A stretch of 64,000 nt of DNA, taken from an uncultured Lentisphaerales bacterium (GTDB lineage Bacteria; Verrucomicrobiota; Lentisphaeria; JABSQK01; UBA12247). Within the stretch, counting starts at the first letter, position 1, and every line of letters starts with the position of its first letter. The DNA lies in assembly GCA_943788985.1 (NCBI GenBank), contig CALSSJ010000005.1:96001-160000 (forward strand). The letters are read 5' to 3'. Below the pieces are notes generated by a model. It had not been told where the DNA came from. It ran no database searches and worked only from the letters and a program-made list of their open reading frames with translations. A program made the translations under genes and the position numbers. Below, in pieces: positions 2,804 through 50,032 of this stretch.

Positions 2804-3637
2804 GTGCCCCGGATATACAGCCATATTTCGCTCTTGCTTCTTGCTCTGCTGGTCAGCTGCCAGACCGTCAAGGAACCCACCATCTTTGAGGCTGTGGTCG
2901 ACGGTGACCTCCCTGAAACGCACGACTTGCTGAATGATGATCGTGCGCGCGTCGACGAGCGCCGGGACGACTTCACGCCGCTTCACTATGCAGCCCGGCA
3001 GGGCAAGGTCGCGATCGCCCAGGCCCTGCTTCAGAATGGCGCAGACGTCCAGGCGGCGAATCGACACGGCTTTACGCCGCTCCACGCGGCTGCGAACGCC
3101 AATCATACGAGGATGGTATCTTTTCTGCTGGACAACGGCGCCGACGTGAACGCGCGCTACAACGGCACCCAGTGTGCTCTTCACGACGCCATCTTTTTTG
3201 GTCAGCTTCCTCTCGTGCGCTTGCTCGTGGCCGCTGGCGCAGACCCAAATGCGGCCAATCGCCATGGCTGGGCCCCAGTTCATCTCGCTGCTCTCCAGGA
3301 CCACGTAGAGATCGCTGGCTACCTCGCCGAGCGTGCGGACAAGAATGTGCGAACTCCGCAGCAGCAGACGGCGCTGATGGTCGCCATGAGCGCCAAGCGC
3401 TGGGCCGTAGCCGCTCGCCTGATTCGCGCGGGAGTCGATCCCGGCCTGGCAGACGGCGACGGTGTTACGCCGCTGCATGTTGCGGCGCTGGTCAATCATA
3501 CCGCGCTGGCCAAGCAGCTGTTGAAGGCCGGTGCTCCTCCTTCCGCAGCCGGGCTCGAGGGCACGCCGCTGGATTGGGCGGATGATAACGATGTCAGTAC
3601 GCTTCTTAGAGCCTATGGGGGCAGACGCGCGCCTTGA
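2804..3637 (+). CDS. Ankyrin-repeat lipoprotein
   Basis: Lipobox-like LLVSC after a hydrophobic stretch; multiple TPLHxAA ankyrin repeats. Confidence 0.9.
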   Translation: MPRIYSHISLLLLALLVSCQTVKEPTIFEAVVDGDLPETHDLLNDDRARVDERRDDFTPLHYAARQGKVAIAQALLQNGADVQAANRHGFTPLHAAANANHTRMVSFLLDNGADVNARYNGTQCALHDAIFFGQLPLVRLLVAAGADPNAANRHGWAPVHLAALQDHVEIAGYLAERADKNVRTPQQQTALMVAMSAKRWAVAARLIRAGVDPGLADGDGVTPLHVAALVNHTALAKQLLKAGAPPSAAGLEGTPLDWADDNDVSTLLRAYGGRRAP

Positions 3638-4914
3638 ATCACCTCACTACAGCAGGACTGCCCTGCAATGCCGTCCTTTGTCGCTATGCCGAGATTGCCA
3701 TCAAGAAGGGCGGCAGGTCGGCTTTCGAGCGAATGCTAGTCCGCAACATCGCCCGCGCTCTGCGAGAGTGGCCGGACCTGCAAGTGCAGCGCATTTGGGG
3801 GCGAATCATGGTCGTGCGGCCCAAGTATATCGCCTTCACTCCTGAAATGATCACCGATATCTCCCGCAAGCTCACCTGGGTGTTCGGGGTCGACTCATTC
3901 TCCTTGGGCGTGCGCACTCCCACCGCGATTCCAGAGATCGAAGAGATCGTCGACCGTATTGTGGACATCGGCTATCGCGAGCTTGCTGCCACCCATGAAG
4001 TGGTCACCTATCGCACCCGGGCCAGGCGCGGTGAGAAGAGCTTCCCGCTTTCTTCTGAAGAGATCGAGATTCACTTTGCAGATCGCTTGCTGCCCAAATA
4101 TGACCGCCTGAAAATTCACCTCAATGACGATGCCATGCTCACGGTTTGGGTCGAGGTACGGGAACAGTGGACGTTCATCTTTGCCGACGAACAGCTCGGC
4201 CCTGGTGGCCTGCCCATCGGTAGCAACGGCAGAGCCATGGTGATGCTCTCAGGCGGAATCGACTCGCCAATCGCTGCCTACCTCACCATGAAGCGTGGCT
4301 GCCGGGTCGACTTCCTGACCTTTCACAGCTTCCCCTACACCGAGCAGGAAAGTATCGAGAAAGTGGCTAAACTCGCCACCGTTCTAAACCGCTACCAGAA
4401 GGCTGGCCGCGTCTGGGCCTGTAACATGTTGGGCGCACAGCGTGCCGTACGCGATGGTTGTACGGAGAGGTTTCGCACCGTGCTCTATCGTCGGATTATG
4501 ACGCGAGTGTCCGGCCGCCTGGCGTATGCCCTCTATCGGACCGCGCTGGTGACCGGCGATGCCCTGGGCCAGGTAGCCAGTCAGACCTTGCCGAATATGG
4601 ACGTAATCAACCGTGCCACTGACATGTTGATCTTGCGGCCGCTGTTGGGGATGGACAAGCGCGAGACCGTAGCCATCGCGCGGCGCATCGAGACCTACGA
4701 CATTTCCAAGCAGCAATGTGCCGACAGCTGCACCGTGTTCATGCCCGATTCGCCAGCCACCAAGGCCACGGTTGAAGAGATCGAGCGCGAAGAAGCAAAG
4801 TTGGATATGGACGCGTTGATCGAGGTCTGTCTGAACAATGTCACGGTGATTAACACCAAGACATTCGAGGAAGTCCCGTTCGAGTTTCGCGAACGCCGGG
4901 AAGGCGACGAGTAG
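3634..4914 (+). CDS. thiI: tRNA 4-thiouridine synthase ThiI (no rhodanese domain)
   Basis: RYAEIAIK, THUMP region, PP-loop LSGGIDS, GQVASQTL, RPLLGMDK. Confidence 0.95.
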   Translation: MNHLTTAGLPCNAVLCRYAEIAIKKGGRSAFERMLVRNIARALREWPDLQVQRIWGRIMVVRPKYIAFTPEMITDISRKLTWVFGVDSFSLGVRTPTAIPEIEEIVDRIVDIGYRELAATHEVVTYRTRARRGEKSFPLSSEEIEIHFADRLLPKYDRLKIHLNDDAMLTVWVEVREQWTFIFADEQLGPGGLPIGSNGRAMVMLSGGIDSPIAAYLTMKRGCRVDFLTFHSFPYTEQESIEKVAKLATVLNRYQKAGRVWACNMLGAQRAVRDGCTERFRTVLYRRIMTRVSGRLAYALYRTALVTGDALGQVASQTLPNMDVINRATDMLILRPLLGMDKRETVAIARRIETYDISKQQCADSCTVFMPDSPATKATVEEIEREEAKLDMDALIEVCLNNVTVINTKTFEEVPFEFRERREGDE

Positions 4915-4933
4915 TCATCACGGGCGTGCCGAT

Positions 4934-7522: not shown

Positions 7523-7524
7523 GA

Positions 7525-7851
7525 GAGATTGTCACCAGTTCTATCGCATATCTCACGGACTTTCTCCTTGATGACGCCGCCTTTGCAAAGCTAGTTTCGG
7601 AACTGAACGGATGTTCGACGGTGGTCTGCAAGGCGCAATATGGCGATCAAGACGCTGATCCAGCAAGACGAAACTATCGCACGACGATATCTTCGATGGC
7701 CAGACTCGCCGCGCAAGCTGATGTCGAAAACCTGGCCCTTTTTCGCCTGTCGGAACGCTACGCAAGCGATGAGTGGCGAGACATGTTGAGCTGGTGCAGT
7801 ACTGTTTTACCCGCGACGAGTTTCCCAAAGCACTGGGAGCAGATCGGGTGA
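7525..7851 (+). pseudogene. C-terminal remnant of an RNase Z/BN-like metallo-beta-lactamase
   Basis: Frame reads SIAYLTDFLLD...VCKAQY...ARRNYRTT...LAAQADVENLALFRLSERY; the His positions of the family's H-T and H-x-S-x-R-Y motifs are Arg; no N-terminal half. Confidence 0.65.
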
Positions 7852-7952
7852 TGGTATGCGACGCAAAAAGATTTCCGTCCTACGCGTTACAGCATCGGGA
7901 TTTTTTCGTCTGTCTACATATCCAGTTCATCACACCACACAGGACACTTAGC

Positions 7953-9539
7953 ATGAACCACTTACTCCTTCTTCTCGCGGTATGCGCGGCACCTTTTCTT
8001 GGCGTTGCGGACTCCGCAAAGCCCAATGTAATTTTCGTGATGACCGATGACCAGGGCTATCCGGTTGTGGGGGCGCACGGGCATCCCTGGATTCGGACGC
8101 CGAACCTGGATGCCATGCATGCCCAGTCCGTTCGCTTTGATCGGTTCATGATGGGCTCCACCTGTGCACCAAGTCGGGCCGGAATTATGACTGGGAATCA
8201 TGCGATTCGCAACGGGGTGACGCACACGATCCACGAGCGTGAACGGCTCAATCTGGAGGCGACGACCATCCCGCAAGTGCTCAAGCTAGCTGGCTACACA
8301 TCGGGGTACTTCGGCAAGTGGCACTTGGGTGATGAGGCCCCATACCAGCCAGAGAATCGGGGCTTTGACGAAGTGTTCATTCACGGCGCGGGAGGGATCG
8401 GCCAGAAATACGAAGGCTCGTGTGCGGATGCACCTGGCAATAGGTACTTCGATCCAGTGTTCAAGCACAACGGCACGTTTGTGAAGACCAAGGGCTATTG
8501 CACAGATGTTCTTTTCAAATCAACGTTGGGCTGGATCCAATCGGTCAAGGATTCCGATCAGCCTTTCTTCGCCTATCTCTCGACCAATGCGCCGCATAGC
8601 CCATTCGTCGCCCCGCCGAAGTACCAACAATACTTTCAGGATCTGGGTTTCCCCCGGCATGCCGCTGGCTTCTACGGGATGATCGAGCATATCGACCACT
8701 GTATGGGCCAGATGTTCGAACAGCTGGAGGCTTGGGGCCTGCTGGACAATACAATCGTCATCTTCACCTCGGACAATGGGATGACCCGAGTCGGGTGTGG
8801 CCTGAGAGGGGTTGCTGGCCGTCCCCAAGTGCAGCTTGGTACAGACAAAGACGGGAAGCCGATGATGAGCGACAATGCAGGCATGAAGGGCCTCAAGAAC
8901 ACCGTCGACGAAGGCGGCGTCCGGGTTCCGTTCTTCGTGCGCTGGGCTGGGGGGATCAAGCAAGGCCGCACCGTCAATACGGTGGTCAGCTACTTGGATA
9001 TCCTGCCGACTCTGGCGGACCTGGTCGGGGCCGAAAGCCCCGCGGCGATGGAAGGCAAGAGTCTGAAGCCTTTTCTATTGGAACAAGATCCGGTCTGGGA
9101 GGATCGGTTTCACTTTCAGCATGTGACGCGCTGGGGCCTCAACGCCGAGCCTGACCATTGGAAGTGGAAGAGATACTCGGTACGTAACCAGCGCTTCCGC
9201 CTGGTCGAAGGTGTGCTATACGACATGCAGAACGATCCGAACCAGACTGAAGATGTGACCGCGAAGTACCCTGAGTTGGTGTCAGAGATGAAGAAGGCCT
9301 ACGGAGCCTTCTGGGACCAAGCGCGACCGCTGATGATCAACGAGGGCGTGCCACTGGCAAAGGAGCATCCGTACCATGTCGAATACTACGCACAAGAGAA
9401 AAGTACTGGCATTCCTCAGTGGCAGGAGCCCGTTCTGGCATTTAAGGCTTCAGCACCCGCGACCGTGCATGGTAGTGTAGGCGCTGAAGCTAAGGGCAAA
9501 GGTGCCCCCACGAAGAAGAGCAAGATAAAGCGGAAATAA
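7953..9539 (+). CDS. Secreted arylsulfatase (S1 family)
   Basis: Signal peptide, [16 protein letters not shown] formylglycine motif, GKWHLG. Confidence 0.95.
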
Positions 9540-9546
9540 GGTGACG

Positions 9547-11028: not shown

Positions 11029-11278
11029 TGGGACAGACGGTGGCCAGCTGAAAGTCGCGCACAAGAGTAGGGGGCGAAAGTGAGTTTTGCGACTACTAGG
11101 CTCATCGTGGCAGGGAATAGGTCTGGTGTTGCCTTATCCAGGGTAGGTCGCAACTCATGAATTGGCATGTTTTGCATGGAAGCACGGGTAATCTTCGAGG
11201 GATTCGTAGAGCGCGCGTGGCATGGATGTCTCGGTGGCGTATTCTGGGGCAGGGCGAATGTTCATGGAGAGAAAAATT

Positions 11279-13595: not shown

Positions 13596-13614
13596 ACTCT
13601 ATTCTTCAGTGTAC

Positions 13615-18363: not shown

Positions 18364-19298
18364 CCCTGCCGTGGATCCAGGCAATCCGCCCCAAAACTCT
18401 TTGGGCCGGATTTGCGCCTGTGTTGATCGGTGCCGCTCTCGCTTTTGCGGAGTCCGCATTAAACTGGCTGTTTGCCGCCCTGTGCTTGTTATTTGCGTTG
18501 GCGCTGCAGATTGGCTGCAACCTTGCCAATGACTACTTCGACGCCAAGAAAGGTGCGGACACCCCAGACCGCCTTGGGCCCGTGCGGGTCACCCAATCTG
18601 GGCTGATTTCCCCCGCTGCAGTGCGCCGCGCCGCGGGCCTCTGTTTCGGCATTGCCAGCCTGATCGCGCTGGCCATGATCCAGCGTGGCGGGCTGCCGGT
18701 GGTGATTATTCTCGTGACCGCGGTCATCACCGCCATCTGCTACACAGGCGGCCCCTTCCCGCTGGGGTACAACGGCCTGGGAGACGTAGCCGCCTTCATC
18801 TACTTCGGCCCCGTAGCCGTAGGGGGGACGCATTACATCATGACCGACTCCTGGAGTACAGATGCGATCATTGCAGGCTTTGGCCCCGGCTTTCTCTCTG
18901 TCGCGATCCTTACCGTCAACAATCTGCGCGACCTGGAGACAGACCGCGCGGCCCACAAGCGTACCCTCATCGTCATGTGGGGGCGAACCTACGGCCGCAT
19001 CCATTACACGGTGGCACTGATCGCAGCGGCGCTGGTTCCCGTGGTGCTGATTCTGCGAAGCGGCAGCCACCACGCGGTGGCGATCGCCTCACTCGCCTGC
19101 GTTCTAGCTATCGTTCCGCTCGTGCGCGCTGTCTGGCGTGAAACCGGTCGCCCACTAAACCAAACGCTTGGTGCCACCGCCCGGCTGCTGCTCGTTTACA
19201 GCATCCTTTTTGCCGTTGGCTGGAACTTACCCCGAGCTACTTCTTCAGCCACCAATTCTCCGCCAGAGTTCTTGCAACCCGCGAATCCGGGGAGCTAA
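18360..19298 (+). CDS. menA: 1,4-dihydroxy-2-naphthoate prenyltransferase
   Basis: RPKTL, NLANDYFDAKKGAD, YTGGPFPLGY.GLGD, NNLRD..TD...KRTL. Confidence 0.95.
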
Positions 19299-20340: not shown

Positions 20341-21659
20341 GGCGCGACCGTCTTCAAAGGCCGCAGCTTGATGTACTCATCTCCGTCGTAGAGGATCGTC
20401 ACCGACTTCATCGGGCTGAATTCGATCGAGCCATTCGCTGCCTTACTCACAAGAACCCCCTGAATCACCTCGCCATTTGCCTTATGAAGCTCATGGTCGG
20501 GGATCCAAAGCTTGGTGAGCCTCAGGGTGCCAAGCTGGGTCAGTTCACCGCGAAAAACCAGCACTTTCTTGCGAATCGGCGCGTAGCCAGCCTTGCGCAC
20601 TTCCACCAGATGCGGCCCCTCGGCCAGGTCGGCAAAATCGGTGATCTTGGAAACCAGACGCGTTCCCTGTTGCCGCGTGGTCCCCAGATTCTTTGCGCCC
20701 ACGTAAATCTGGCAGCCCGGCGGCTCAGTGGCCAGGGAGAATCCGCCCAGTACCGATTCCATATTTGTGATGATCTTCGTGGTCTTGCCAGGCCCGATGC
20801 TTGCGTTCTGGTGCACGTCGTCAAACCCGGTTTTAGTCAGCCGGAGAATCAGAATTCCGGGCGCGAGGTTCTTGCGCTCGAAAGGCGTGGTGCCCAGCAA
20901 CTCATCGTTGCCATACACATCCACCCCGGTTGGCGTAGTTTCCACGCGTAGTGCACCCGGCTTGGCCTGAAATGCTGGCAGTGGGACTCGCACCTCTTGA
21001 TCCTTGAGGAGCGTCACCGAATTTGAGACATTTTCGTGTCCGGCCAGGCGACCCTGTACCTCATGGCGACCCGCCATCAGATCCGTCAATACCAGCGGGC
21101 TATTGCCCCGGTACTGGCCGTTGATGTAGATTGACGCGCCCTGGGGGGTGGTGTCCACCCGCAACTTCCCCAGCAGGCTTTCCAGCAGGCAATGCAAACC
21201 GACCGGTCGTTCGTCGGGCACTTGCAGCGTAATCGTCCGGCTTTGGTGTCCCGCAAGGCTGAACGTGACCTCCTTAGTGCCGAGTGGAAGTGGCACCACG
21301 CAGGGAGTGGTTCCCAGCGGCTTGCCAGCCATCAAGATGCTCGCGCCAGGCGGTGAGGACGTAAGCCGTACCGGTGGTCGAAACGGCTCCAGTCTTACCT
21401 CTACCTGATACGGATCAATGGCACCCGGTTGAATTCGCTCGAAATGGGGATGATGCCCCTTCTTGCGCACCTCGACCATGTGCCCCGCCACATCGATCTG
21501 CAGCACAAGCGGCGTCAAGCCTACCTGCTTCCCGTTCACCGTCACCTCAGCCGACTCTGGCTGGCTTGAGATCTCCAATGTGCGCACTTCTGCGCTCCAA
21601 AGTGCGAGCGCCAACAGTGCCCCCAGGGCAAGGTGCCAATTTTGCGGAGTTCGCATCAC
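20337..21659 (-). CDS. Multi-PEGA-domain secreted protein
   Basis: Five repeats of (S/T).P.GA.(V/I)...G...G.TP...G.H.V...K.G. Confidence 0.9.
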   Translation of the reverse strand: MMRTPQNWHLALGALLALALWSAEVRTLEISSQPESAEVTVNGKQVGLTPLVLQIDVAGHMVEVRKKGHHPHFERIQPGAIDPYQVEVRLEPFRPPVRLTSSPPGASILMAGKPLGTTPCVVPLPLGTKEVTFSLAGHQSRTITLQVPDERPVGLHCLLESLLGKLRVDTTPQGASIYINGQYRGNSPLVLTDLMAGRHEVQGRLAGHENVSNSVTLLKDQEVRVPLPAFQAKPGALRVETTPTGVDVYGNDELLGTTPFERKNLAPGILILRLTKTGFDDVHQNASIGPGKTTKIITNMESVLGGFSLATEPPGCQIYVGAKNLGTTRQQGTRLVSKITDFADLAEGPHLVEVRKAGYAPIRKKVLVFRGELTQLGTLRLTKLWIPDHELHKANGEVIQGVLVSKAANGSIEFSPMKSVTILYDGDEYIKLRPLKTVAP

Positions 21660-29081: not shown

Positions 29082-29623
29082 TGTACGATGATGAATTGCG
29101 CGCCCGCGTCGAGAACCGTCTCGACCTTGTCGGCCTCAAACTGCTGCAGAACGTTTACAGCGCCAACTGGGGCGTCGGGCTCAGCGACCGCACCAGCAGC
29201 GACGAGCGCCTCGAGTGGTCCAACAACTTTGGCCTCGAACGTGGCGCCATGGCCCTGCTCCTTATCATCTGGGTGAAGCTGATCCTGCCCAAAAGACTCG
29301 CCCAAGAGGAGCGCCAGCCCGAGGACGGCACCGTGGCTTCCCTCTTTCCGCAGATCGAAACCGTTCCCCAGCCTCGCGTGAGTGTTAATCGTGACCAGAT
29401 TGTTGCGGAGTTCGCAGATCTGCTCGGCGGCATCACCCTCGTCGGCAAGTACCTCGCCCAGTTGTCGCGGGGCCCCAAGCTCATTCGCTGCCACGGGGGC
29501 CTGGTCGAGGAAGGCCCGCTGCTTTCCCTCGTGGTCGACGAAACCAAGCTTGGCGACGAACTCCGCCGCGATGTCCTGCTCAGTGTGCTCAAGCGCGAAC
29601 ACAGCGCTGGGTACCCGCGCTGA
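28985..29623 (+). CDS. MukE/MksE/JetB-like KITE subunit
   Basis: AGGAG then GTG; V..RL..VGL.L, ALLL.IW..LILPKR, EGPLL tandem winged-helix pattern resembling DUF4194-like proteins. Confidence 0.62.
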   Translation: MELDEQPQDQLQEICSLLIANGYIPKDQFQQLMYDDELRARVENRLDLVGLKLLQNVYSANWGVGLSDRTSSDERLEWSNNFGLERGAMALLLIIWVKLILPKRLAQEERQPEDGTVASLFPQIETVPQPRVSVNRDQIVAEFADLLGGITLVGKYLAQLSRGPKLIRCHGGLVEEGPLLSLVVDETKLGDELRRDVLLSVLKREHSAGYPR

Positions 29624-30129: not shown

Positions 30130-30135
30130 TTCGCT

Positions 30136-32405
30136 ATGCCAGACGACCCCAAAAATCCCTACCAAGGCCCCGCAGGTGGCTGGGGAGCACTTGCCGCCAG
30201 CGCCGAGATTATCACCCGCGGAAAAAAGCCATCGCGCGTGGCCTCGGCCGCGTTGCTTCGGGTGGTAAACCAGAAGGACGGCTTCGACTGCCCCGGCTGC
30301 GCCTGGCCTGATCCTCACGACCACCGATCTGCCTTCGAGTTCTGCGAGAACGGCGTCAAAGCCGTCGTTTGGGAATCCACGTCTAAGCGCGTCCGACGCC
30401 GCCTTCTTTGCCAAGCACACCGTTTGCGAACTCCGCAAAAAAGAGCGACCACTGGCTGGAGTCGCAAGGGCGCCTGGTCAATCCGCTCGCCTACGACCCC
30501 AAGACCGACCACTTTGCTCCCATCCCCTGGTCCGAAGCCTTCGAGACGATCGGCGCGACCCTGCGGTCGCTGGACGATCCCAACCAGGCGGCCTTCTACA
30601 CCTCCGGCCCCGCGCCAGCAACGAAGCGGCGTACCTCTATCAGCTCTTCGTCCGCATGTTCGGCACCAACAACCTGCCGGGACTGTTCGAACCTGTGCCA
30701 CGAAGTCCAGCGGCGTCGGGCTCAACCCAGACCATCGGAATTGGGAAGGGGACCGTCTCGCTCGCGGACTTCGATGAGGCCGATGCCATCTTTGTCATCG
30801 GCCAAAATCCAGGCACAAACCACCCTCGCATGCTCAGCGCCCTCCAGGGAGCGGCCAGACGCGGGGCCCAAATCGTGGCCATCAACCCACTCGTCGAGCG
30901 CGGTCTCGAGAAGTTCCTGCATCCGCAGGAGGCCGGGGCCATGCTGTGCAACAAGGCCACCCCGATCGCCACTGCCTATTTGCAGCCCACCATCGGCGGC
31001 GATCTTGCCCTGCTCACCGGTATCTGCAAGCACATTCTTGCCGCCGAAGACGCAGCACCCGGGACCATTCTGGACCATGCCTTTATCGATGAGCACACCA
31101 ACCAGTTTTGCGGAGTTTGCAGAATCCGTACGTGCAGCAGACTGGGAGACCATCGAGACCCAGTCCGGATTGCGGAGTTCGCAAATCCAGGAGGTGGCGG
31201 ACATTTACTTGCAGGCCAAGTCTGTGATCTGCTGCTGGGCCATGGGCCTGACGCAGCACACCCACGGCGTCGCCACCATCCAATTCGTGGTGAACCTGCT
31301 GCTCATGCGTGGCAACATTGGCCGTCCAGGAGCCGGCGCCTGCCCCGTGCGCGGGCACAGCAACGTGCAGGGCAATCGGACCGTGGGCATCAACCACCAC
31401 CTGCCTCCTGCCTTTGGCGAGAAAATGGAGAAGCTCTACGACTTCAAAGCCCCCACGACGCATGGCTACGACGTAGTCGAGGCCATCAAAGCCATGAATG
31501 ATGGCCGCGTACGCGTGTTTATGGCACTGGGCGGTAACCTGGTGCCGGCCTCCCCGGATACCGAACTTACTGCTGCCGCGCTTGAGAAAACTGAGCTGGC
31601 GATTCATGTCGCGACCAAGCTAAACCGGACGCATTTGGTGCACGGGAAGCAGGCGCTCATTCTGCCCTGCCTCGGGCGGACCGAAATCGATCAGCAGGTC
31701 GCCGGTCCACAGGTCGTGACTGTTGAAGATTCGATGGGTGACGTCCATGCGTCCGAGGGCAGAAACGCCCCCGCTGGGGAGCAGTTGCTCTCAGAAACCG
31801 CGATCGTTGCGAACATCGCAGCTGCCACGCTCCCGCCGGGGAAACCCGATTGGCGCGGCTTCGTGGCGGACTACGCCACGATTCGCGACCACATCGAGAA
31901 AGTCCTGCCTATCTTCAAGGATTACAACGCCCGTATCGCCGAGCCTGGCGGCTTCAGTCTCAAGAATACTGCTCGCGACCGTGAGTGGATCACCGGCACG
32001 GGCAAGGCTAACTTCACCGTGGCCGCGATTCCGGACCTCACCCTGCCGCCCGGTCGCCTGCGGTTGATGACCATTCGCTCGCATGATCAGTACAACACCA
32101 CGATCTACGGAAACGATGACCGCTATCGTGGGATCAAGGGGCAGCGCACCGTGATCTTGCTCAATGTTGCGGACATCGCAAACCGTGAGATGGCGGCTAG
32201 CGACGCGGTCACGATTACCAGCTTCGGGCCCGACGGGAGAGAGCGCCAAGTGACTGGCTTTACGATTGTCCCGTATGACATCCCCGAAGGCTGCGCTGCT
32301 GCCTATTTTCCGGAGGCAAATCCTCTAGTTGCGATTGACAGCGTCGCCGCTGGCAGCAACACGCCGGTCTCCAAGCTGATCGAGATCGAGATCTCGAGAG
32401 GCTGA
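30136..32405 (+). CDS. FdhF/YdeP-family molybdopterin oxidoreductase, frameshifted in this assembly
   Basis: AGGWGAL, GFDCPGCAWPDP, EFCENG, FGTNNLP, GQNPGTNHPRML, RGHSNVQG, RSHDQYNTTIYG spread over three frames, with extra homopolymer bases at ~30393-30442, ~30608-30727 and ~31100. Confidence 0.9.
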
Positions 32406-32479: not shown

Positions 32480-33322
32480 CTAACCCAGGGCTGCGTACAA
32501 CGCCGCCCGCATGGCAGCGACCGGGGCTTCCCGCTGTGTCCAGAGCTCGAAGCTGCGCACGCCCTGGTATAACAGCATTTCCTTGCCATCGGCTGTCTCC
32601 CAGCCGCGCTCGCGGGCAGCGAGTAGAAGTGGGGTAGGGCGATAAATCATGTCGAGCAATCGGCCATTCTCTGGCAAGACCTCGAGCGGGATCGCGCTGG
32701 GATCCTCTGGCTTTAAGCCCATGCTGGAACTCTGGACCACGACGCCTGCAGCAGACAACGCAGTGCGTACAGCATGATTATCCGCGCGGTCGATGACCTG
32801 GATGCTCGCCTCGGTTTGCGAACTCCGCAAGACCTCGGCCAAGGCCTCGGCCCTGGCTTGCGTGCGGTTAATTAGGGTGATTTGGGCAGCGCCCGCGGCA
32901 GCATAGTGACATGCTGTGGCCCGGGCGGCACCGCCAGTGCCCCAGAACAGAATGTGCGCGCCAGCAGCCGGGACCCCGAATGCCTCGCGAATAGAGCGCT
33001 CCAAGCCGTAGCCATCTGTCGACCAGCCGTACAGTTTGCCGTTGTCGTTCAGGACGGTGTTCACGCTCTGGGCGAGCCGGGCGGGAGGATCGATCTCGTC
33101 GAGGAGCGGGAGCATCGCAGCTTTATGTGGGACGGTGATGTTCCAGCCGCGAAAGTCGTCTGCGACAAGTTGTCGGATGCCGTTCTCGAATTCGCCGGGA
33201 TCCAGGGGGAGAAGCTTATACGAGGCGTCAATGCCAAGCGAATCGAAGCCAGCTCCCTGCATTTGTGGGGACACAGAGTGAGTGACGGGCCAGCCGAGTA
33301 CGCCAAATTTTTGCTGGCTCAT
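32480..33322 (-). CDS. aroE: Shikimate dehydrogenase
   Basis: G.PV.HS.SP, NITVPHK, SVNT, TDGYG, GTGGAA, NRT, DMIY, MLLYQG. Confidence 0.95.
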   Translation of the reverse strand: MSQQKFGVLGWPVTHSVSPQMQGAGFDSLGIDASYKLLPLDPGEFENGIRQLVADDFRGWNITVPHKAAMLPLLDEIDPPARLAQSVNTVLNDNGKLYGWSTDGYGLERSIREAFGVPAAGAHILFWGTGGAARATACHYAAAGAAQITLINRTQARAEALAEVLRSSQTEASIQVIDRADNHAVRTALSAAGVVVQSSSMGLKPEDPSAIPLEVLPENGRLLDMIYRPTPLLLAARERGWETADGKEMLLYQGVRSFELWTQREAPVAAMRAALYAALG

Positions 33323-36782: not shown

Positions 36783-37582
36783 GCAGGGACCAATTCCTTG
36801 CTAGCTTGGGCGAGAGCCTCAGCGATCTCCTCCGCGGGTTTTGCGGAGTTCGCAACCAGCCGGCCGATGAATCCACCCGCTGGCAGGTCGAAGCTTGCGG
36901 CCAATACCTCCGGCATCTCGGCCACGCGCCCGCTGGGCGGGGTGCCCCCTACCCGCTTGATCTCGGTGGCAAGGGTCTCCTGCAGTGAGTCGGGCCAACC
37001 GATCGCATAGATCGTCTGCAGCACCGGAAATCGGAACGCGCGGGGTGTGTCGGCCGGCAGTGCCTGCGGATCCCAGACCACCTGCGTCGCTCCCCGCTGA
37101 ATCTCCACGTGGCTCTCAAACCGATCGAATGCGAACGCCTCGCCACTGCCAAGGCGACCTGCGTGCACGGTCTCGATCAACAACAGGCGGCCCTCCGGGT
37201 GAACCTGCCAGCTTTGTCGTTGCGCCGCGCGGGTGGCGCTATGCAGGACCAGCGGCGGCATCTGCGAAATCACCGTGGCACCCTCTGCTACGGTCCCGGT
37301 GGTTTGCCAGGACACTGTCGCGTCTTCCTGCGTGCAGCGATAGGCGCGGCCGTGAGACTGGCCGCTCAGGAGCAGGGCGGCCGACTGTTCGCAGCGGACG
37401 TCTAGCGAGACATCGTCGCCCTGCACCAAGCCTCCGCCGTAGGATGAGACCATCACATGGCAGAGGCCGTCGTGTCGTGGATTCAGCAGCCTGAGTGGGT
37501 TCACACTGCGCCAGGAGGTAATGCGGGACTGCCCGCGAGTGAAAGCGACCGTCAGGTGAGACTGCCGGTCATGGGTGGACAA
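36779..37582 (-). CDS. ureD: Urease accessory protein UreD/UreH-like
   Basis: PLRLL.P, SYGGGLVQGD, GR..SGE.FAF; start uncertain. Confidence 0.8.
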   Translation of the reverse strand: MSTHDRQSHLTVAFTRGQSRITSWRSVNPLRLLNPRHDGLCHVMVSSYGGGLVQGDDVSLDVRCEQSAALLLSGQSHGRAYRCTQEDATVSWQTTGTVAEGATVISQMPPLVLHSATRAAQRQSWQVHPEGRLLLIETVHAGRLGSGEAFAFDRFESHVEIQRGATQVVWDPQALPADTPRAFRFPVLQTIYAIGWPDSLQETLATEIKRVGGTPPSGRVAEMPEVLAASFDLPAGGFIGRLVANSAKPAEEIAEALAQASKELVPA

Positions 37583-38006
37583 TGCGCACTCCGCAATACA
37601 CAATCACCAGCGCCAGCACAAAGCTGACCTGGCCCAGAATCATAGCAAGCTTGCGGTAGAGACCGGGATCTTCGCCAGCACGCACCAGCGCGCCCAACTT
37701 GGGGCCGATGTACCAGTCATGCAGGGCGGACGCGACCAACAGCAAAGTCACCAGCCCCATCTTGGCATGAATCCATGGTGATTTCATGTGCCCCCCTGTC
37801 ACAGCCAAGTACACACCGGTGCCAATGGCGACTAGCAGCGCAGCCCAGCCGATCACGCGAAACCGCCCAGCGGTCTTGCGCAGCAAGTCAGAGCGAGTGG
37901 CCGGGTCTTCACCCTTTAGTCCAGGAATAAGGGCAAAGGCAATAAAAGCAGATCCGCCGACCCAGATGATGGCGGCGAGAACATGGAGAAAGACGATCAA
38001 TTGCAT
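37569..38006 (-). CDS. CopD/DUF4149-like four-TM membrane protein
   Basis: LHVLAAIIWVGG, K..LV..LL..SALHD. Confidence 0.75.
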   Translation of the reverse strand: MQLIVFLHVLAAIIWVGGSAFIAFALIPGLKGEDPATRSDLLRKTAGRFRVIGWAALLVAIGTGVYLAVTGGHMKSPWIHAKMGLVTLLLVASALHDWYIGPKLGALVRAGEDPGLYRKLAMILGQVSFVLALVIVYCGVRIVHP

Positions 38007-39880: not shown

Positions 39881-39923
39881 AAGCGCTGTATATTTTCCAG
39901 GGAGATCCGGGGTGGCGGTGCGC

Positions 39924-41171: not shown

Positions 41172-41303
41172 GAAAAGTTCCGGGGGGCGCAGCAGCGTGG
41201 GGCCGGTACTATGAGTTGGATGGTCGTGTTCGCAATGCGTGAATTTCGCGCATGCGCGTACGTTTTCGCATCTTTGACCACTATTATGATCCAGGGAAGC
41301 GGA

Positions 41304-42926: not shown

Positions 42927-42933
42927 TCCTGCC

Positions 42934-44193
42934 ATGACCGCGTGCCCGCCGGATCTCGCCCCAGAGAGCCGGTGGGCTGCGCGCAGACTGGATGTGGCCC
43001 TGCTGATCGCCGGTCTGCTGCTGTGTCTGTTTTTCACGGAGCATCGCGTGCATGGCGATGGCGCAATCCGTTTTGACTCGGTACAGGCGATTCTGCGGGG
43101 AACGATACCCGACGGAAAATACTCCTTGATCGGGCCATTGGGCGCGCTGCCATTGGTGGTTCTCGGAACGCTTGCGGAAAACCCGTATGCTGTCGCGGGC
43201 CTGTACAACTTTGCGGTGTTCGCAATTGCCCTGTTCGTGTTATGGTTTGAGCTGGGGCATGTGCTGCCTGACTCAGTGCGTCGCCGCACGCTGCTGTTGC
43301 TGGTCGCCGGATCGATGTTCGCGGCACATCAGCGCGAGTTCTACGGCGAGGTGTTTACCGCGGTTCTGCTTGCCGTCGGCAGCGTCCGGCTGGTGCGCCG
43401 GTGCGATCTCAGCGGCTGGCTGTTGATTGGTCTCGGCATTGCCAACACACCGCCGACCATCGTCGCTGGCGGCCTGCTCGCGCTGGTGCTGTGCCGCCAA
43501 CGAAAGAGCTGGCTGCCTTTGCTGGGCCCCGCGCTGCCGCTGGTGCTGATTCTGGCTGAAGCGTGGATCCGCCGCGGCTCCCCATTCGCGCTTGGCTACT
43601 CCGGCGATGCCGGGATGGTCACGGTGCTGCCATATTCCGGCAAGACAGGGTTCAGCTATCCATTTATTCTCGGCGTGGTTTCGATCCTGTTTTCAGTGGG
43701 AAAGGGGCTGCTTTTTTATGTGCCGGGACTCTTTCTGGGTGCTGCGAACTCCGCAAAACCACAGACGCGAGACCTGTGGCAACTATGGCTTGCCTTTACG
43801 ATCGGGCTGGTGGTGATTTACGCGAAATGGTGGTCCTGGTATGGTGGTTGGTTTTGGGGGCCGCGCTTCTTTCTCTTTGCCTGTTTTCCTGCTTCTCTGG
43901 CGTTGGCCTGTGAGCTGGACCGGCGGAAACTTCTTGCGGCGTTCGCAACCGTACTTTCGGTCTGGGTTTGCTTCTGTGGTGCGGTGTTTGGGCAGATGAA
44001 TGCTGGACCGCTCAGCGAAGTTGACGTGGCCTGGGAGTTCCTTACTTGGTACGTGCCAGAGAACAGCGCCATTCTGCAGCCGTTGGTCGATCCATGGCCG
44101 GTTGGTCTAAATGCCGTGCCATGGGCCCTGTTCAGTTTGGTGGTTGTCGCCCGTCTCCTGATTCCGGTGTTTCGTGAAGATTCTCGCGCTTGA
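42934..44193 (+). CDS. Polytopic membrane protein, possibly GT-C-like
   Basis: ~10 TM segments; HGDG...F, W.GG..WGPRF; overlaps the downstream GT. Confidence 0.6.
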   Translation: MTACPPDLAPESRWAARRLDVALLIAGLLLCLFFTEHRVHGDGAIRFDSVQAILRGTIPDGKYSLIGPLGALPLVVLGTLAENPYAVAGLYNFAVFAIALFVLWFELGHVLPDSVRRRTLLLLVAGSMFAAHQREFYGEVFTAVLLAVGSVRLVRRCDLSGWLLIGLGIANTPPTIVAGGLLALVLCRQRKSWLPLLGPALPLVLILAEAWIRRGSPFALGYSGDAGMVTVLPYSGKTGFSYPFILGVVSILFSVGKGLLFYVPGLFLGAANSAKPQTRDLWQLWLAFTIGLVVIYAKWWSWYGGWFWGPRFFLFACFPASLALACELDRRKLLAAFATVLSVWVCFCGAVFGQMNAGPLSEVDVAWEFLTWYVPENSAILQPLVDPWPVGLNAVPWALFSLVVVARLLIPVFREDSRA

Positions 44194-45259
44194 GCCTTTT
44201 TATGGGGGCAGCCACCGCGCATTTTTGCGTCAGTGGCAACAGCACAGCTGTCACGACTTCACGCTGCTGACCCTGCCTGACAGAAACTGGAAGTGGCGAA
44301 TGCGTCACGCGGCCCTCACGTTTGCCGCGCAATTGCGAGAGCGCACCGAGACCTGGGATGTGATTTGGTGTTCCGACATGCTCGATGTGGCCAGCTTCCG
44401 CGGGCTACTTCCCTGCGAACTTCGCAAGTTGCCCGTAGTTCTCTATTTTCACGAGAATCAACTGACCTATCCGGATCGTACGGCGAGACCGCGCGATCAT
44501 CACTTTGCCTACACCAACATTATCAGTGCGATCTCCGCAGATGCCGTCTGGTTCAATAGCGAATATCACCGCAGCAGCTTCTATGAGGCCGCAGAGGCGT
44601 TTCTCCGGCGCATGCCGGATCATGCGCATCTGGAAGAGTTGCGGAGTTCGCAACAACGTTCGGCGGTGCATCCACCGGGGATTGATTCGGTGCCCGCGCG
44701 AGTATCGGTGCGAAACGGGCCGTTACGGATTTTGTGGAACGCGCGCTGGGAGCATGACAAGAATCCTGAGACGTTTTTCGCCGCGCTGCGCCTGTTGCAC
44801 GAGACGGGTACGGCGTTCGAGGTGGATGTGTTGGGGGAACAGTACGCCAAGCAGCCAGCGGTGTTTGCGGAGTTCGCAACAGACCACGTCGAGCATGTGA
44901 ACCGTTGGGGGCATCAGGACAGTCGTGCGGATTACGCCGAGGCGCTGCGGGAGGCCGATGTGGTGGCATCCACCGCTTACCACGAATTCTTTGGGATCGC
45001 GGTACTGGAAGCGGTCGCGGCTGGGGCCTGGCCGCTGGTGCCGGAGCGCCTGGCCTATCCTGAGACGCTGGCGCGCTGGCCAGCGGAGAGTCGAGATCGC
45101 GTATTTCACGATGGGAGCGCTGCGGATCTGTGCGCGAAGCTGGAGGCCTGGAAGCGCCCGGAATGGGTGCCGGACCCCGGGGAAATCCTCAGTCCTTATT
45201 ACTGGCAGGCCACAGCTGGGAAGATGGACCAGGCGCTGGCCCAGAACGAAAATCTGTGA
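44174..45259 (+). CDS. DUF3524 + GT4 glycosyltransferase, GTDC1/QTMAN-like
   Basis: LEPFYGGSH, WKWRMR.AAL.F, LYFHENQLTYP, FNS.YH, RWEHDKNP, STAYHEFFG, RLAYPE. Confidence 0.88.
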   Translation: MKILALEPFYGGSHRAFLRQWQQHSCHDFTLLTLPDRNWKWRMRHAALTFAAQLRERTETWDVIWCSDMLDVASFRGLLPCELRKLPVVLYFHENQLTYPDRTARPRDHHFAYTNIISAISADAVWFNSEYHRSSFYEAAEAFLRRMPDHAHLEELRSSQQRSAVHPPGIDSVPARVSVRNGPLRILWNARWEHDKNPETFFAALRLLHETGTAFEVDVLGEQYAKQPAVFAEFATDHVEHVNRWGHQDSRADYAEALREADVVASTAYHEFFGIAVLEAVAAGAWPLVPERLAYPETLARWPAESRDRVFHDGSAADLCAKLEAWKRPEWVPDPGEILSPYYWQATAGKMDQALAQNENL

Positions 45260-45393
45260 ATCTGTAGATATTTTTGGAAAGAGACTAAACCCCACGCGGT
45301 TTAGGGGCGTACAAGCGGCAAGCAAATGTTTCTAACCCCGACCCCACAGCTCCCTTGTTCATCTCTTACGGAACCACTCATCAGGAGAACATC

Positions 45394-46386: not shown

Positions 46387-46403
46387 CACTTAGCCGCCGT
46401 AAT

Positions 46404-46445
46404 AAGGGCTTTGCTGAGACTTCGGTCTTGGCAAAGCCCTTTCTT
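46404..46445 (+). terminator. Intrinsic terminator
   Basis: AAGGGCTTTGCTGAGAC-TTCG-GTCTTGGCAAAGCCCTT followed by T-rich bases. Confidence 0.75.
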
Positions 46446-46461
46446 GCGTCAAATTCCCTGC

Positions 46462-49026
46462 ATGATACGACGCATTCTTTTCCGCAGAGACTGTCTCTGC
46501 ATTTTGATGATTTCCGCCTGCTGGCTCCCAGCGGCGGATCTTTACGTTTCCGCCAGCGGTAGCGCGACTGCGCCTTATGACTCCGTGGCAACAGCGGTCA
46601 CGACCATTCAGGCCGGTATTGACGCCGCGCAGTCCGGCGACACCATTCACATCATCCCCGGGCTTTATCGCGAAACTCTGACAGTCGCGGGCAAGGCACT
46701 TACCCTCGAAGGCGATGGCATTGCGCAGACGCGGCTGGATGCGAACTTCGCAGGATCGGCACTTGCGATTTCCGCAAACGCGTCGGTCACGCTGCGAGGC
46801 CTGACCATCAGTGGTGGCCTGGCAACACTTGGCGGCGGAATCTCGGTCGTAGACGCTGGGCTCACTGCCAGCAACGTGCGCATCACGGCCTGTCGAGCCG
46901 GGCGCGGAGGGGGGCTCTACGCGAACAACGCAATTGTGTCTGTAAACGACTCGGTCATCGATGGCTGTGATGGCTACATCTCAGAGTCGGGGGCTGGAAA
47001 GGGCGGGGCGATCTACGTGCTCTACTCGCCTGCCGGGATCCCAGCAAGTTTTGCGAACTGTGCAATTCATGGCAATCGGGCCGTATATGGCGTCGTGCGC
47101 GCCTGGGCCTCAGAGGCCGTGTTTCGGCAGTGCCAGTTTTTTGAGAACCGCGCAGAGTCGGACATCATTGAATTGCAGTCGGCGAGTCATGTGGACTTTG
47201 TCGACTGCTTAATTCACTCGAACCAGTCCCTTTCTCGGAGCTGTCTGGCTATCTACAACGAGAGTACCAGCGAGCTTGCCTATTGCACTATCACCGAGAA
47301 TGAGTCGCTGGGGGATGAGTCCGTGGTTTACGTAGATGTGTGGTCTTCGTTCTCATGCTATAACAGTGCGCTGCAGCGCAATTCGCCCGACAGGCTGGAG
47401 GTGCCATCCACCGCCGTATTCGCTGGCTCGGCGCTGTCCACGGCACCTGCTGGGTTCAGAATTATATCTATCGCCGAGGCGTTCTCGAGCAGCAGTGAGG
47501 GCGCATACTTCCTTGCGAACACCGCAGCTGCGCCCACTGAGTTTATCGGCCTCGGCGTGAGTGCAGGGCCTTCTTATGTGGTCGCTGAGAACGTCCGGCG
47601 CTGCTTTGCTGCGGAAGAAACTCCGGCAGCGGTGTTAAACGCGGGCTACGGCTATCCATTCGGTATCTTGGGGAGCCTGAAGGTGGCAACTCTGCCGGAA
47701 TGGACGGCGACAGGAACAGGCCAGCCGTCTCGCTGGTATATGCTTGAGGAATCGGCAACGATGGATTTTTCCGCGTTCAGCAGTCGGACGATTGGCCCGC
47801 TTACGGCGGTAAGCAGCGCTGTCGGGATTCCAGAGCCGACGGAGGCCGGACTGTTGCTACAACGGCTGCGCAGCTCCGCGCCGCTGGGGAACAGCGTGGC
47901 GATCCAGCTGGAAGATAATGCGCAGGCAGCAGTGGTGGGCGTTCGCGTGGACCTACTCGCCGCGGATGGAACGGAGTGGTATGGCGCCGGCGTTTCAGAT
48001 GCGCAGGGCCAGGCAATCATGCAGAATGTGCCGGATGGATCGTACACGGTCCTGGCGGGAAGCGTGAGCGCCGACTACGTCTCCACCTTTTTGGGCAATG
48101 CAGGCGCGGTGGGGGCGGCGACTACTTTTGACCTGCGCAGTGGCTCACGTGCGACTGGCACCATCACGCTGGCCGGCGGCAACCGCATCGAGGGCCACGC
48201 GCGCATTGCGGGGACCGCGACTTTTCTGCCAGATGTAGCGGTGGTCATTTACGATAGCTCAGATACGCCAGTGAAGAGCGCGGTGACAGACGCGGTTGGC
48301 AACTACTCGATCGGGGGGTTACCCAACGGTACGTATCGTGCGCTCGGCCAGAACTCACCCGCATACTCAGATTCCTACTACTTTAATCAGGCGGACCTGG
48401 CCAGCGCAAACGGTGTGGCTGTTTCGGGTAGCTCGACAGTGAATAGCGTGAATCTGAATCTTGGAGCCAAGCTGGCGATCACCGGCGAGGTGACACTGCC
48501 TGACCAGGGAAACCTGTTTCAGATTACCGTGGTGTTGTACGATGCGTCGACGTTTGAAGAGCGGTCCTTTACATTCTGTGATTCGCTCGGGCAGTACACG
48601 CTGTATGCGAGCCCCGGCACGTATATTGTCTCTGCCGGAGAGGGATCTTCCTATGTCGTGACCTACAGCGCCTCGCTCACGGTCACGAGTCAGCCGGTTA
48701 CGGGTCAGGATTTCATCCTGTCGCAGGGCGGCACCATCTCTGGACGGATCACAGACTCATCGGCCGTCCCGTTGAGCGGTATCTACGTGGACATCTACGA
48801 AACGGACGGGACAACCTATGTGACTTCGGCGCTGACCGGCGCGAACGGTACCTATACTACGCCGGAGCTTGGCGCAGGCGACTATTTTGTGCTTGCCTAC
48901 GGAGATCCAAGCTATACGAATTTGTGGTATCCGGGGACGTCGAACCCCACGTCAGCCACCACAGTTGGCGTCGTCGCCGGGCAGGATACGCCCAACATCA
49001 ACATCGCTATTTCGCTCGCCCGGTAG
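46462..49026 (+). CDS. Secreted protein: parallel beta-helix N-terminus + carboxypeptidase-regulatory-like (Cna-B-type) repeats
   Basis: YVS..G...PY....TIQAGIDAA..GD.I...PG.Y.E, GGG.. repeats; four TD..G.Y....L..G.Y.V repeats. Confidence 0.8.
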   Translation: MIRRILFRRDCLCILMISACWLPAADLYVSASGSATAPYDSVATAVTTIQAGIDAAQSGDTIHIIPGLYRETLTVAGKALTLEGDGIAQTRLDANFAGSALAISANASVTLRGLTISGGLATLGGGISVVDAGLTASNVRITACRAGRGGGLYANNAIVSVNDSVIDGCDGYISESGAGKGGAIYVLYSPAGIPASFANCAIHGNRAVYGVVRAWASEAVFRQCQFFENRAESDIIELQSASHVDFVDCLIHSNQSLSRSCLAIYNESTSELAYCTITENESLGDESVVYVDVWSSFSCYNSALQRNSPDRLEVPSTAVFAGSALSTAPAGFRIISIAEAFSSSSEGAYFLANTAAAPTEFIGLGVSAGPSYVVAENVRRCFAAEETPAAVLNAGYGYPFGILGSLKVATLPEWTATGTGQPSRWYMLEESATMDFSAFSSRTIGPLTAVSSAVGIPEPTEAGLLLQRLRSSAPLGNSVAIQLEDNAQAAVVGVRVDLLAADGTEWYGAGVSDAQGQAIMQNVPDGSYTVLAGSVSADYVSTFLGNAGAVGAATTFDLRSGSRATGTITLAGGNRIEGHARIAGTATFLPDVAVVIYDSSDTPVKSAVTDAVGNYSIGGLPNGTYRALGQNSPAYSDSYYFNQADLASANGVAVSGSSTVNSVNLNLGAKLAITGEVTLPDQGNLFQITVVLYDASTFEERSFTFCDSLGQYTLYASPGTYIVSAGEGSSYVVTYSASLTVTSQPVTGQDFILSQGGTISGRITDSSAVPLSGIYVDIYETDGTTYVTSALTGANGTYTTPELGAGDYFVLAYGDPSYTNLWYPGTSNPTSATTVGVVAGQDTPNINIAISLAR

Positions 49027-49039
49027 GGAGCCGCAGCTT

Positions 49040-50032
49040 ATGTATCGCCTTTCTTCTCTTTCTCAGTTGCCGGATGTCGGGCTATCGCGCTGTGCGATCA
49101 CCTGCGGGGTCTTCGATGGCGTCCATGTGGGACATCAGTCTATTCTGAAGCAGCTGCACGAATGCGCCACGGAAACCGATGCGTTCCCGGTGGCAGTGAC
49201 GTTCGACCCACACCCACGCGCGGTGCTGCGACCGGAGGCAGCACCGCGACTGTTGTTCTCGATCGACCATCGGCTAGATTTTCTAGAGGACGAGGGGGTG
49301 AAGGCGGCGGTGACCCTGCGTTTTGACCGCGAGCTCTGCGCGCTTTCTGCTGCGGAGTTCGCAAATCAAGTGTTGGGCCCGGCCGGGCTGGAGATCGCTG
49401 CGATTTGCGTGGGGGACAGCTGGCGGTTTGGCGCCAAGGCATCGGGGACTGTCGCAGACCTCCGGCGCTTCTTTCCGGCCGCCAAGGTGGTGGGCGTCTC
49501 AGAAACTGAGCTGACGGACGCCGTGGTCAGCAGCACCAGAATTCGCGCAGCGGTGCAGGCCGGTGACCTGCCGCAGGCAGAACAGCTGCTGGGGCGGACT
49601 TTTTCCGTGCGTGGCACGGTCGTGCGGGGGAAGGGGCTCGGGCGGACGCTGTTGGGCTGTGCCACGGCAAATTTGCACCTGACCGATTACGTAAGCCCGC
49701 CAAAGGGGATCTACGCTTGCGAGGCGTCGCTGTTCCCGGAAGATGGGAGGCGAGAACATGCGGAGAGGCACGCCGCAGCGGTGTACATCGGGCATGCGCC
49801 AACAGTATCAGCAGGGCAGCCTTTGACGCTCGAGGCACATCTGTTTGATTTCTCCGAGGACATTTACGACCGTACGATCGAAGTAAAGTTCTTGAAACGA
49901 CTACGGAATGACGAACGTTTTGACAGCCTCGAGACGTTGCGCGCACAAATTCAGCGCGATCTGCTTGAGGCGCGCCAGGTCCTGCATAGAGCAGGTGTAT
50001 GTAGCCGACCACTGACCGCGGAGTTGCCATGA
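49040..50032 (+). CDS. ribF: Bifunctional riboflavin kinase/FAD synthetase
   Basis: GVFDGVHVGH, TFDPHP, VSSTRIR, ATAN, LEAHLFDF, R.D.RF. Confidence 0.95.
   Translation: MYRLSSLSQLPDVGLSRCAITCGVFDGVHVGHQSILKQLHECATETDAFPVAVTFDPHPRAVLRPEAAPRLLFSIDHRLDFLEDEGVKAAVTLRFDRELCALSAAEFANQVLGPAGLEIAAICVGDSWRFGAKASGTVADLRRFFPAAKVVGVSETELTDAVVSSTRIRAAVQAGDLPQAEQLLGRTFSVRGTVVRGKGLGRTLLGCATANLHLTDYVSPPKGIYACEASLFPEDGRREHAERHAAAVYIGHAPTVSAGQPLTLEAHLFDFSEDIYDRTIEVKFLKRLRNDERFDSLETLRAQIQRDLLEARQVLHRAGVCSRPLTAELP

Follow-up and report, generated by a model that had tools for sequence, protein, structure and literature searches.

To our knowledge, few hyper-abundant selected genomic words are known, namely Chi, the FtsK-orienting polar sequences (KOPS), the uptake signal and DNA uptake sequences (USS and DUS), and HIP1. 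USS and DUS are asymmetric, and each is confined to one family. The sites of MatP, SlmA and Noc (matS, SBS and NBS) are mostly intragenic palindromes of 12–16 bp that are bound by protein dimers and occur in tens per genome, being either restricted to a macrodomain or kept out of one; in outline, matS has fixed arms around a central RNY. HIP1 (GCGATCGC, cyanobacteria) has a function that is still debated and has gone unexplained for three decades. HIP1 is described as palindromic, 15- to 300-fold over-represented and conserved between genomes, at densities of up to more than one per gene, with no evident peptide or RNA role and with a proposed role in chromosome structure; its conservation was read there as selection rather than replenishment (PMC5861425). 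HIP1 has also been linked to orphan methyltransferases (PMC4390886) and lately to transformation and gene transfer (2024 preprint, 2026 paper), and Chi and KOPS are described as over-represented intragenic oligomers used by DNA-processing machines (PMC4390886). Here we describe a near-palindromic 13-bp word, TGCGGAGTTCGCA, that recurs within a 64-kb stretch of bacterial DNA (positions 96,001–160,000 of contig CALSSJ010000005.1; hereafter the window, numbered from its first letter). It is an apparently selected hyper-abundant genomic word for which no earlier description was found in the literature searched.

The window word resembles HIP1 in being hyper-abundant, mostly intragenic in any frame, spread through a deep clade and conserved at orthologous sites, and like HIP1 it shows no sign of acting as a peptide or RNA. 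On symmetry the comparison is mixed: its family consensus is a degenerate palindrome, but the form most frequent in the window breaks symmetry at one half-site pair. Its over-representation in this one 64-kb window falls in or above the 15- to 300-fold range of HIP1, and in a small sample its sites are conserved above background. Both sequence and phylum are different, so the word is an analogue of HIP1 and not a member of that system. HIP1 is a fixed octamer, whereas the window word spans 13–17 bp, has a degenerate centre that differs in dialect between lineages, is dominated by an asymmetric form and occurs once per 2.8–4.9 kb of the window. HIP1 also has known cognate methyltransferases (for GATC and CGATCG), in contrast to the window word, for which the Pfam scan of the window gave none. 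A previous interpretation made from the letters alone (the sequence-only reading) had called the word a candidate undescribed signal, and the exact word and its complement were indeed absent from the roughly 8.4 million open full texts searched. Searches for uptake sequences, over-represented words or competence in Lentisphaerae, Kiritimatiellae and Verrucomicrobia returned nothing relevant, and a term search of the Kiritimatiella description met no mention of palindromes or of competence.

Thirteen exact copies of TGCGGAGTTCGCA are present in the window, eight on the + strand and five on the − strand, precisely where the sequence-only reading had placed them. The nine single-mismatch copies that it listed are also all found, plus one that it missed at 37583, and 23 sites match with ≤1 mismatch. 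Dinucleotide-preserving shuffles of the window contain no exact copy in 100 of 100 cases and a mean of 0.16 sites at ≤1 mismatch (largest 2). An order-3 Markov model of the window predicts ~0.005 exact copies, corresponding to a ~2,600-fold excess. The sequence-only reading had proposed a codon-aware null as a check, which we ran as 300 synonymous-codon shuffles of 42 open reading frames (ORFs; 54,993 nt) with protein sequences and per-gene codon usage preserved. The exact word appears in these shuffles with a mean of 0.097 (maximum 1) against the 13 observed, a ~130-fold excess, and sites at ≤1 mismatch with a mean of 1.32 (maximum 5) against 23. Dinucleotide shuffles, Markov model and synonymous-codon shuffles thus rule out chance or codon usage as the origin of the copies. 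When all words of 6–13 bases in the window are counted, TGCGGAGTTCGCA and its sub-words are the sole strongly over-represented long words.

The word is built from inverted TTGCG arms that flank a 5-base spacer and lie one helical turn apart. This spacing is specific, as TGCG-Nn-CGCA occurs 30 times in the window for n = 5 versus 1–8 times for each of the other spacers between 0 and 11. In all 10 single-mismatch copies the mismatch falls within the six central positions, leaving the arms intact (chance 4e-4). Both perfectly symmetric forms, TGCGGAGTCCGCA and TGCGAAGTTCGCA, are among the variants (two copies each in the window), and the element is therefore a degenerate palindrome. The family consensus reads T-TGCG-RANTY-CGCA-A, of which TGCGGAGTTCGCA is the local dialect of the window, and 18 sites of this degenerate family lie in the 64 kb. 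As the sequence-only reading had seen, T's on the 5′ side and A's on the 3′ side extend the dyad, with T at −1 in 11/13 exact copies and A at +1 in 8/13; no base preference is seen beyond about ±3 around the exact copies. A CRP/FNR-type operator (TTGCG-N4-CGCAA) was considered and rejected, since the enriched spacer is 5 and not 4 (30 vs 8) and the sites are intragenic. A larger repeat, a mobile element or an RNA family was likewise rejected, given the lack of conservation beyond ±3 and of any Rfam or tRNA match in the window.

The word is read in at least four frames (four to five) in unrelated genes, and what recurs is therefore the DNA and not a peptide. Sense copies read xAEFA or LRSSQ and antisense copies xRTPQ or xANSA, while CELR is read at 44414 and, in the frame bearing the Molybdopterin match, at 30425; these peptides had been noted before (CELR for the FdhF frame), along with the conclusion that the DNA recurs. 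The peptides themselves occur almost only with the word: in the window ORFs the exact word spells 5/6 occurrences of AEFA, 3/3 of LRSSQ, 2/2 of RTPQ and 3/3 of ANSA, indicating that the word makes the peptides and not the reverse. A recurrent peptide as the cause is ruled out by the four to five frames and by the near-confinement of these peptides to word copies. Homologue alignments, also suggested by the sequence-only reading, show that the residues encoded by the motif in a glycosyltransferase (positions 81, 118, 156 and 231) and in GltX (position 378) fall at variable positions, fitted around the few conserved residues. In the nearest GltX and glycosyltransferase relatives the motif-encoded peptides are absent, except possibly AAEFA in protein P0133. 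The word is embedded in coding sequence in any frame that the protein tolerates. At the gathering threshold, the 64-kb window contains no tRNA, tmRNA or Rfam family.

The presence of the word in related genomes of the Planctomycetes–Verrucomicrobia–Chlamydiae (PVC) group, another check put forward with the sequence-only reading, was examined by scanning public genomes with the 17-mer TTTGCGGAGTTCGCAAA. The scan returned at least 99 loci, 80 of them with 10-kb flanks, and the counts below are those among the matches listed. According to record titles, 38/99 are PVC, comprising Lentisphaer- (15), Victivall- (9), Kiritimatiell- (3) and Opitut- (4) names, metagenome-assembled genomes (MAGs) labelled 'Verrucomicrobiota' (5) and Planctomycetota (2). 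Because every locus was fetched for one copy, the test is the number of further sites per locus. The 32 loci with Lentisphaer-, Victivall-, Kiritimatiell- or Verrucomicrobiota-MAG labels contain 42 further family sites in 323 kb (~1.3 per 10 kb), and several MAGs are matched by the 17-mer 2–5 times. The remaining 67 loci, obtained in the same way, contain a single further family site in 787 kb; it lies in the 61 non-PVC loci (720 kb), which have no second exact copy, and the six Opitut- and Planctomycetota loci (67 kb) have no further family site. Counted by mismatch, further copies number 8 exact, 32 one-mismatch and 48 two-mismatch in the 38 PVC loci (389 kb), against 0, 2 and 19 in the non-PVC loci.

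A wider distribution of the word, as the non-PVC matches of the 17-mer might imply, is ruled out by the want of a second exact copy and the single further family site in those 61 loci. At least 10 of the non-PVC matches fall in four groups of orthologous genes (L003/L025/L027/L073, L008/L076/L082/L090, L006/L072 and L007/L094) and are ordinary chance hits passed on by descent; in a species-level genome collection, common ancestry inflates chance hits. TTTGCGGAGTTCGCAAA stands in one conserved gene of four Acidobacteriaceae loci and likewise of four Bacteroidales/Paraprevotella loci, with no further exact or family site there. An assembly artefact of a single contig is ruled out as well, because the word recurs in independent public assemblies. 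A blastn comparison of the window with the 99 listed loci gave no match, and tblastn gave distant matches only.

The arms of the palindrome are constant across all dialects, in genomes of 33% to 70% G+C, and the centre differs by lineage. GAGTT is the centre of the 13 exact copies in the window and of four extra copies in loci with Kiritimatiell- labels, while loci with Victivall- labels use GAATT, AAGTT and AAATT (again among the matches listed). A Lentisphaerae MAG of 68–70% G+C carries GAGTC and GACTT, and a MAG of 33–36% G+C carries GAGTC. The sequence-only reading had supposed a lineage-specific recognition site, but the word is not narrowly lineage-specific: it represents one dialect of a degenerate palindrome that Lentisphaer-, Victivall- and Kiritimatiell- genomes have in common. 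Its broader view, a DNA word of USS/DUS/HIP1 type in excess of a codon-aware null, is supported. Some sites in these loci are paired, in opposite orientation 45–75 bp apart (L030 9510–9567, with 9510 on − and 9555 on +; L066 10003–10087; L089 303–388) or in the same orientation 53–99 bp apart (L075, L038, L041 and L014).

Orthologous sites allow the word to be compared between species. Loci from three Victivallales species (L056, L059 and L071) align as orthologues along 2.7 kb of an SNF2-like helicase gene (~83% identity) and have three sites in common, one of which we set aside because its 17-mer fetched all three loci. At the two non-ascertained sites, 25/26 columns are conserved versus 77.5% elsewhere (one-sided Fisher p=0.0115), and variation is confined to one column, the central N. 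Third codon positions at these two sites are conserved in 9/10 cases versus 51% (p=0.013), which suggests a constraint on the DNA itself. Pairwise orthologous sites (L056/L071 and L014/L092) likewise have intact arms and change at the centre alone. Together, these comparisons point to a constraint that would act on the DNA letters themselves.

We then placed the sites relative to genes, using mechanical ORF calls for the window and 27 PVC loci (coding fraction 0.893). At ≤1 mismatch, 87/89 sites lie inside ORFs, where ~9.5 would be expected outside (p=0.003). These 87 sites comprise 53 in sense and 34 in antisense orientation relative to the gene. The most used frame is xAEFA (7/22 window sites and 35/65 PVC-locus sites, with the fetching 17-mer itself favouring this frame), and frames that encode Cys are rare.

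Along the window the sites are clumped, with a variance-to-mean ratio of 1.94 in 4-kb bins (p=0.015). A stretch of 1.7 kb (43212–44878) holds seven of them, a cluster equalled in 49/200,000 random placements. Four of them, at 44414–44878 in a gene for a QTMAN-like glycosyltransferase, are separated by gaps of 113, 113 and 226 bp (2 × 113), two equal consecutive gaps being found in 762/200,000 random placements; the skipped register position, 44753, has no copy. A register of 113 bp means that the reading frame of the word rotates between these sites. At 10.3 bp per turn, 113 bp would equal 11 turns. The register hints at phased nucleoprotein assemblies. Strand order over 46 kb is interleaved and lacks a switch point (− + − + + − + − + − + + +), and the last 14.6 kb (49364–64000) contain no site at ≤1 mismatch.

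The reading that we favour, though we place it slightly short of an even chance, is that of a HIP1-like word that is recognised by a putative symmetric protein and acts at the level of the chromosome. The site would be read on duplex DNA by a symmetric (dimeric) sequence-specific protein conserved across the Lentisphaeria–Kiritimatiellia radiation, and this recogniser would have co-evolved with the centre of the site. Nucleoid-associated and segregation proteins are candidates, as is an orphan methyltransferase that targets the RANTY centre. Its action would be on the chromosome, through nucleoid organisation or the marking of own DNA, and not on the gene, its RNA or its protein. The geometry is that of matS, SBS and NBS, which are also palindromes with half-sites about one helical turn apart (here TTGCG arms with a 5-base spacer), but the sequences are not known to be related, and 18 family sites lie in the 64-kb window alone.

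Several points weigh against a symmetric chromosomal recogniser. The commonest form in the window is an asymmetric hybrid, GGA-G-TTC, with 13 copies versus 2 + 2 of the symmetric forms, and this excess over the expectation from independent half-sites argues against a simple homodimer. The sites of MatP, SlmA and Noc have densities far below one per 2.8–4.9 kb. The Pfam scan of the window, to which the search was confined, found no methyltransferase. The enrichment figures for TGCGGAGTTCGCA cover one 64-kb window, and the conservation test is a small sample of two three-species sites and two pairwise sites. The clade assignments are public record labels, with five loci labelled only 'Verrucomicrobiota'. 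Finally, each ORF was called from its most upstream start, and the sites at 21643, 37583 and 18446 may therefore lie in leaders.

A density of the right order, interleaved orientations (8+/5−), a halo of one- and two-mismatch copies and the persistence of orthologous sites would also suit a USS/DUS-type uptake or self-recognition tag, in which a competence receptor prefers the word and uptake with recombination spreads it by molecular drive. The DUS of Neisseriaceae and USS of Pasteurellaceae are also embedded in coding sequence in any frame and both orientations, favour frames of low cost and, as reported for DUS, differ in dialect between lineages (PMC3630211); permissive frames and variable protein positions, as seen here, are reported for USS/DUS (PMC2817400; preprint). 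The reading-frame bias of those words thus recurs in the preference for xAEFA, but their location does not, since about half of DUS/USS are described as lying in terminators, often as inverted pairs (preprint), versus 87/89 sites in ORFs for the window-word family. Sites are depleted from intergenic DNA, even though a simple tag could be placed there at the lowest cost. The palindrome keeps invariant arms across class-level lineages from 33% to 70% G+C, its sites are clustered where a tag would be even, and it is missing from the 14.6 kb that contain ftsH and a PBP gene; our literature searches also met no report of competence for Lentisphaerae or Kiritimatiellae. We regard such a tag as unlikely, and of the three functions considered from the outset, namely nucleoid or segregation, methylation-linked repair and uptake, DNA uptake fits least well, because the word is palindromic, has arms conserved across classes and is nearly absent between genes. 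A Chi- or KOPS-like polar word that guides RecBCD/AddAB or FtsK would share the order of copy number and the intragenic location. Chi and KOPS are strongly strand-polar, however, whereas the arms here are palindromic and the + and − copies (8+/5−) alternate over 46 kb without a switch point, and we give this type hardly any weight.

A functionless word could in principle also arise as the neutral by-product of biased mismatch repair or gene conversion, comparable to very-short-patch repair. Such a process, perhaps coupled to a methyltransferase, would turn near-matches into the word. This would explain why the exact asymmetric form dominates, as if copied to one target, and why the near-match halo is concentrated in the centre while the arms are fixed; repair of every departure would keep synonymous positions constant as well, and methylation could be directed at the degenerate RANTY centre. 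We nevertheless judge it improbable. A specificity of 13–17 bp is much longer than that of known short-patch repair systems, conversion offers no reason to spare intergenic DNA, and constant arms with differing centres over 33–70% G+C would need a co-evolving recogniser anyway. For HIP1, moreover, conservation was taken for selection over replenishment (PMC5861425). A structural role seems very improbable, whether as a hairpin in RNA or single-stranded DNA or as a miniature mobile or REP-like element. A single strand of 17–21 nt spanning a copy can form a weak hairpin with a 5–7 bp stem and a 5-nt loop (−4.5 to −6.1 kcal/mol; z −2.6 to −4.6), but the arm letters are identical everywhere without compensatory stem changes, both orientations relative to genes are used (53 sense, 34 antisense), and the window has no Rfam family match. 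REP elements are extragenic. The sites here differ from REP- or MITE-like repeats in being intragenic and in frame; the word forms part of the reading frame itself, with no inserted DNA and no conserved sequence beyond ±3.

The host can be placed by single genes. GltX of the window shares 57–58% identity with proteins carrying the labels Lentisphaerae, Victivallales, Lentisphaeria and Kiritimatiellaeota, and 69–71% with two further proteins. In a single-gene tree, midpoint-rooted for drawing only, the window GltX and these two proteins form a separate clade that adjoins the Lentisphaer- and Kiritimatiell- sequences, and the window glycosyltransferase has no relative above 57% identity. Together these place the host in a sparsely sampled lineage that belongs to the Lentisphaerae–Kiritimatiellae radiation or lies next to it. 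They do not demonstrate a planctomycete host, GltX being closest to Lentisphaerae, Victivallales and Kiritimatiellaeota proteins.

The individual sites were located by motif search, with genes from Pfam and peptides from the reading frame. Pfam supports most of the gene names first given, namely ankyrin, PEGA, GltX, SPL-like, shikimate dehydrogenase, UreD, QTMAN-like glycosyltransferase, RibF and molybdopterin oxidoreductase; the label 'JetB-like', and a glycosyltransferase for the copy at 43743, are not confirmed, as described below. From the left, an exact copy lies antisense in the ankyrin-repeat gene (3348..3360, −; VRTPQ), followed by two single-mismatch copies with the perfectly palindromic sequence TGCGGAGTCCGCA, one in a sulfatase gene (8006..8018, −) and one in a UbiA-family gene (18446..18458, +; FAESA). 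The exact copy at 21643..21655 (+) sits at the junction of an FHA-domain gene and the PEGA gene, at codons 2–6 of the longest PEGA ORF. Sense copies follow in gltX (23941..23953, −; FAEFA), where the alignment shows a variable position of the protein family, and in the SPL-like gene (27292..27304, +; LAEFA). The next exact copy (29404..29416, +; VAEFA) falls in ORF 28985–29623, which has no family match; the label 'JetB-like' is not upheld, as neither this ORF nor ORF 27699–29081 has a Pfam match at E≤0.01.

Three copies lie in a molybdopterin oxidoreductase gene (FdhF/YdeP-like; 30130–32405) that is spread over three reading frames. The first (30425..30437, −; CELR) is exact and is the only full 17-mer TTTGCGGAGTTCGCAAA of the window. 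The second is a single-mismatch copy, TGCGGAGTTTGCA (31109..31121, +), and the third is exact (31171..31183, +; LRSSQ). The Molybdopterin Pfam profile matches with positions 53–171 in the frame of 30269–31498 and with positions 177–290 in that of 30387–32402, and the second frame shift occurs at a run of four T directly 5′ of the 31109 copy. Either pseudogene formation or an error in a homopolymer might account for the split.

Further exact copies lie in the shikimate dehydrogenase gene (sense; 32817..32829, −; LRSSQ) and in ureD (antisense; 36842..36854, +; VANSA), and the additional single-mismatch copy, TGCGGAGTGCGCA, lies near the start of the ureD ORF (37583..37595, −). The 1.7-kb cluster begins with a single-mismatch copy at 43212..43224 (+). 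Its next exact copy (43743..43755, −; AANSA) is antisense in an ORF of 439 aa without Pfam match, not in a recognised glycosyltransferase gene; this ORF also holds a single-mismatch copy (43935..43947, +). The four sites in the 113-bp register are a single-mismatch copy with the perfect palindrome TGCGAAGTTCGCA (44414..44426, −; CELRK), a single-mismatch copy 113 bp beyond it (44527..44539, −), an exact copy another 113 bp on (44640..44652, +; LRSSQ), at a variable position of the glycosyltransferase family, and an exact copy 226 bp further (44866..44878, +; FAEFA). Another TGCGAAGTTCGCA copy at 46740..46752 (−) precedes a two-mismatch copy at 46764. The last two sites are a single-mismatch copy in the gene for a large beta-helix/CarboxypepD_reg protein (47514..47526, −) and an exact sense copy in ribF (49351..49363, +; AAEFA).

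Other genes of the window accompany these sites. A GH95 fucosidase-like gene followed by three sulfatase genes (4934–12685) contains one weak copy of the motif, that at 8006; this combination is typical of sulfated-polysaccharide degraders. The site-free region 49364–64000 holds core genes (protein kinase, ftsH, FHA protein, PBP2-type transpeptidase and PTPS), and its G+C does not differ from that of the rest. It also contains an ORF (57794–58543, −) that weakly matches DUF1559 (PF07596) at its N terminus (E=8e-4, short of the curated cut-off); DUF1559 is a prepilin-like family much expanded in PVC bacteria. This ORF is a possible lead for a putative DNA receptor.

Taken at its broadest, the favoured reading would describe an ancient chromosomal address system common to Lentisphaeria, Kiritimatiellia and the deep-branching relative represented by the window. 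Hundreds to thousands of copies of a degenerate palindrome of 15–17 bp would be carried in coding sequence and bound by a putative symmetric protein co-evolved with its centre, forming a second, independent HIP-like system; we propose this tentatively, and rate it rather below an even chance. Chi, KOPS, USS/DUS and HIP1 have each given a view of a DNA-handling machine. A second palindromic word among them, in an unrelated and little-studied branch of the PVC group, provides an independent system for testing ideas on nucleoid structure, methylation, recombination and uptake. In practice, the word with its dialects could serve as a marker that tells native from acquired DNA and assists in assigning metagenomic contigs of these lineages to bins. 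The address system, if true, may be tractable for showing what such words do, whether they help to fold the nucleoid, label the cell's own DNA for recombination or defence, or serve in uptake.

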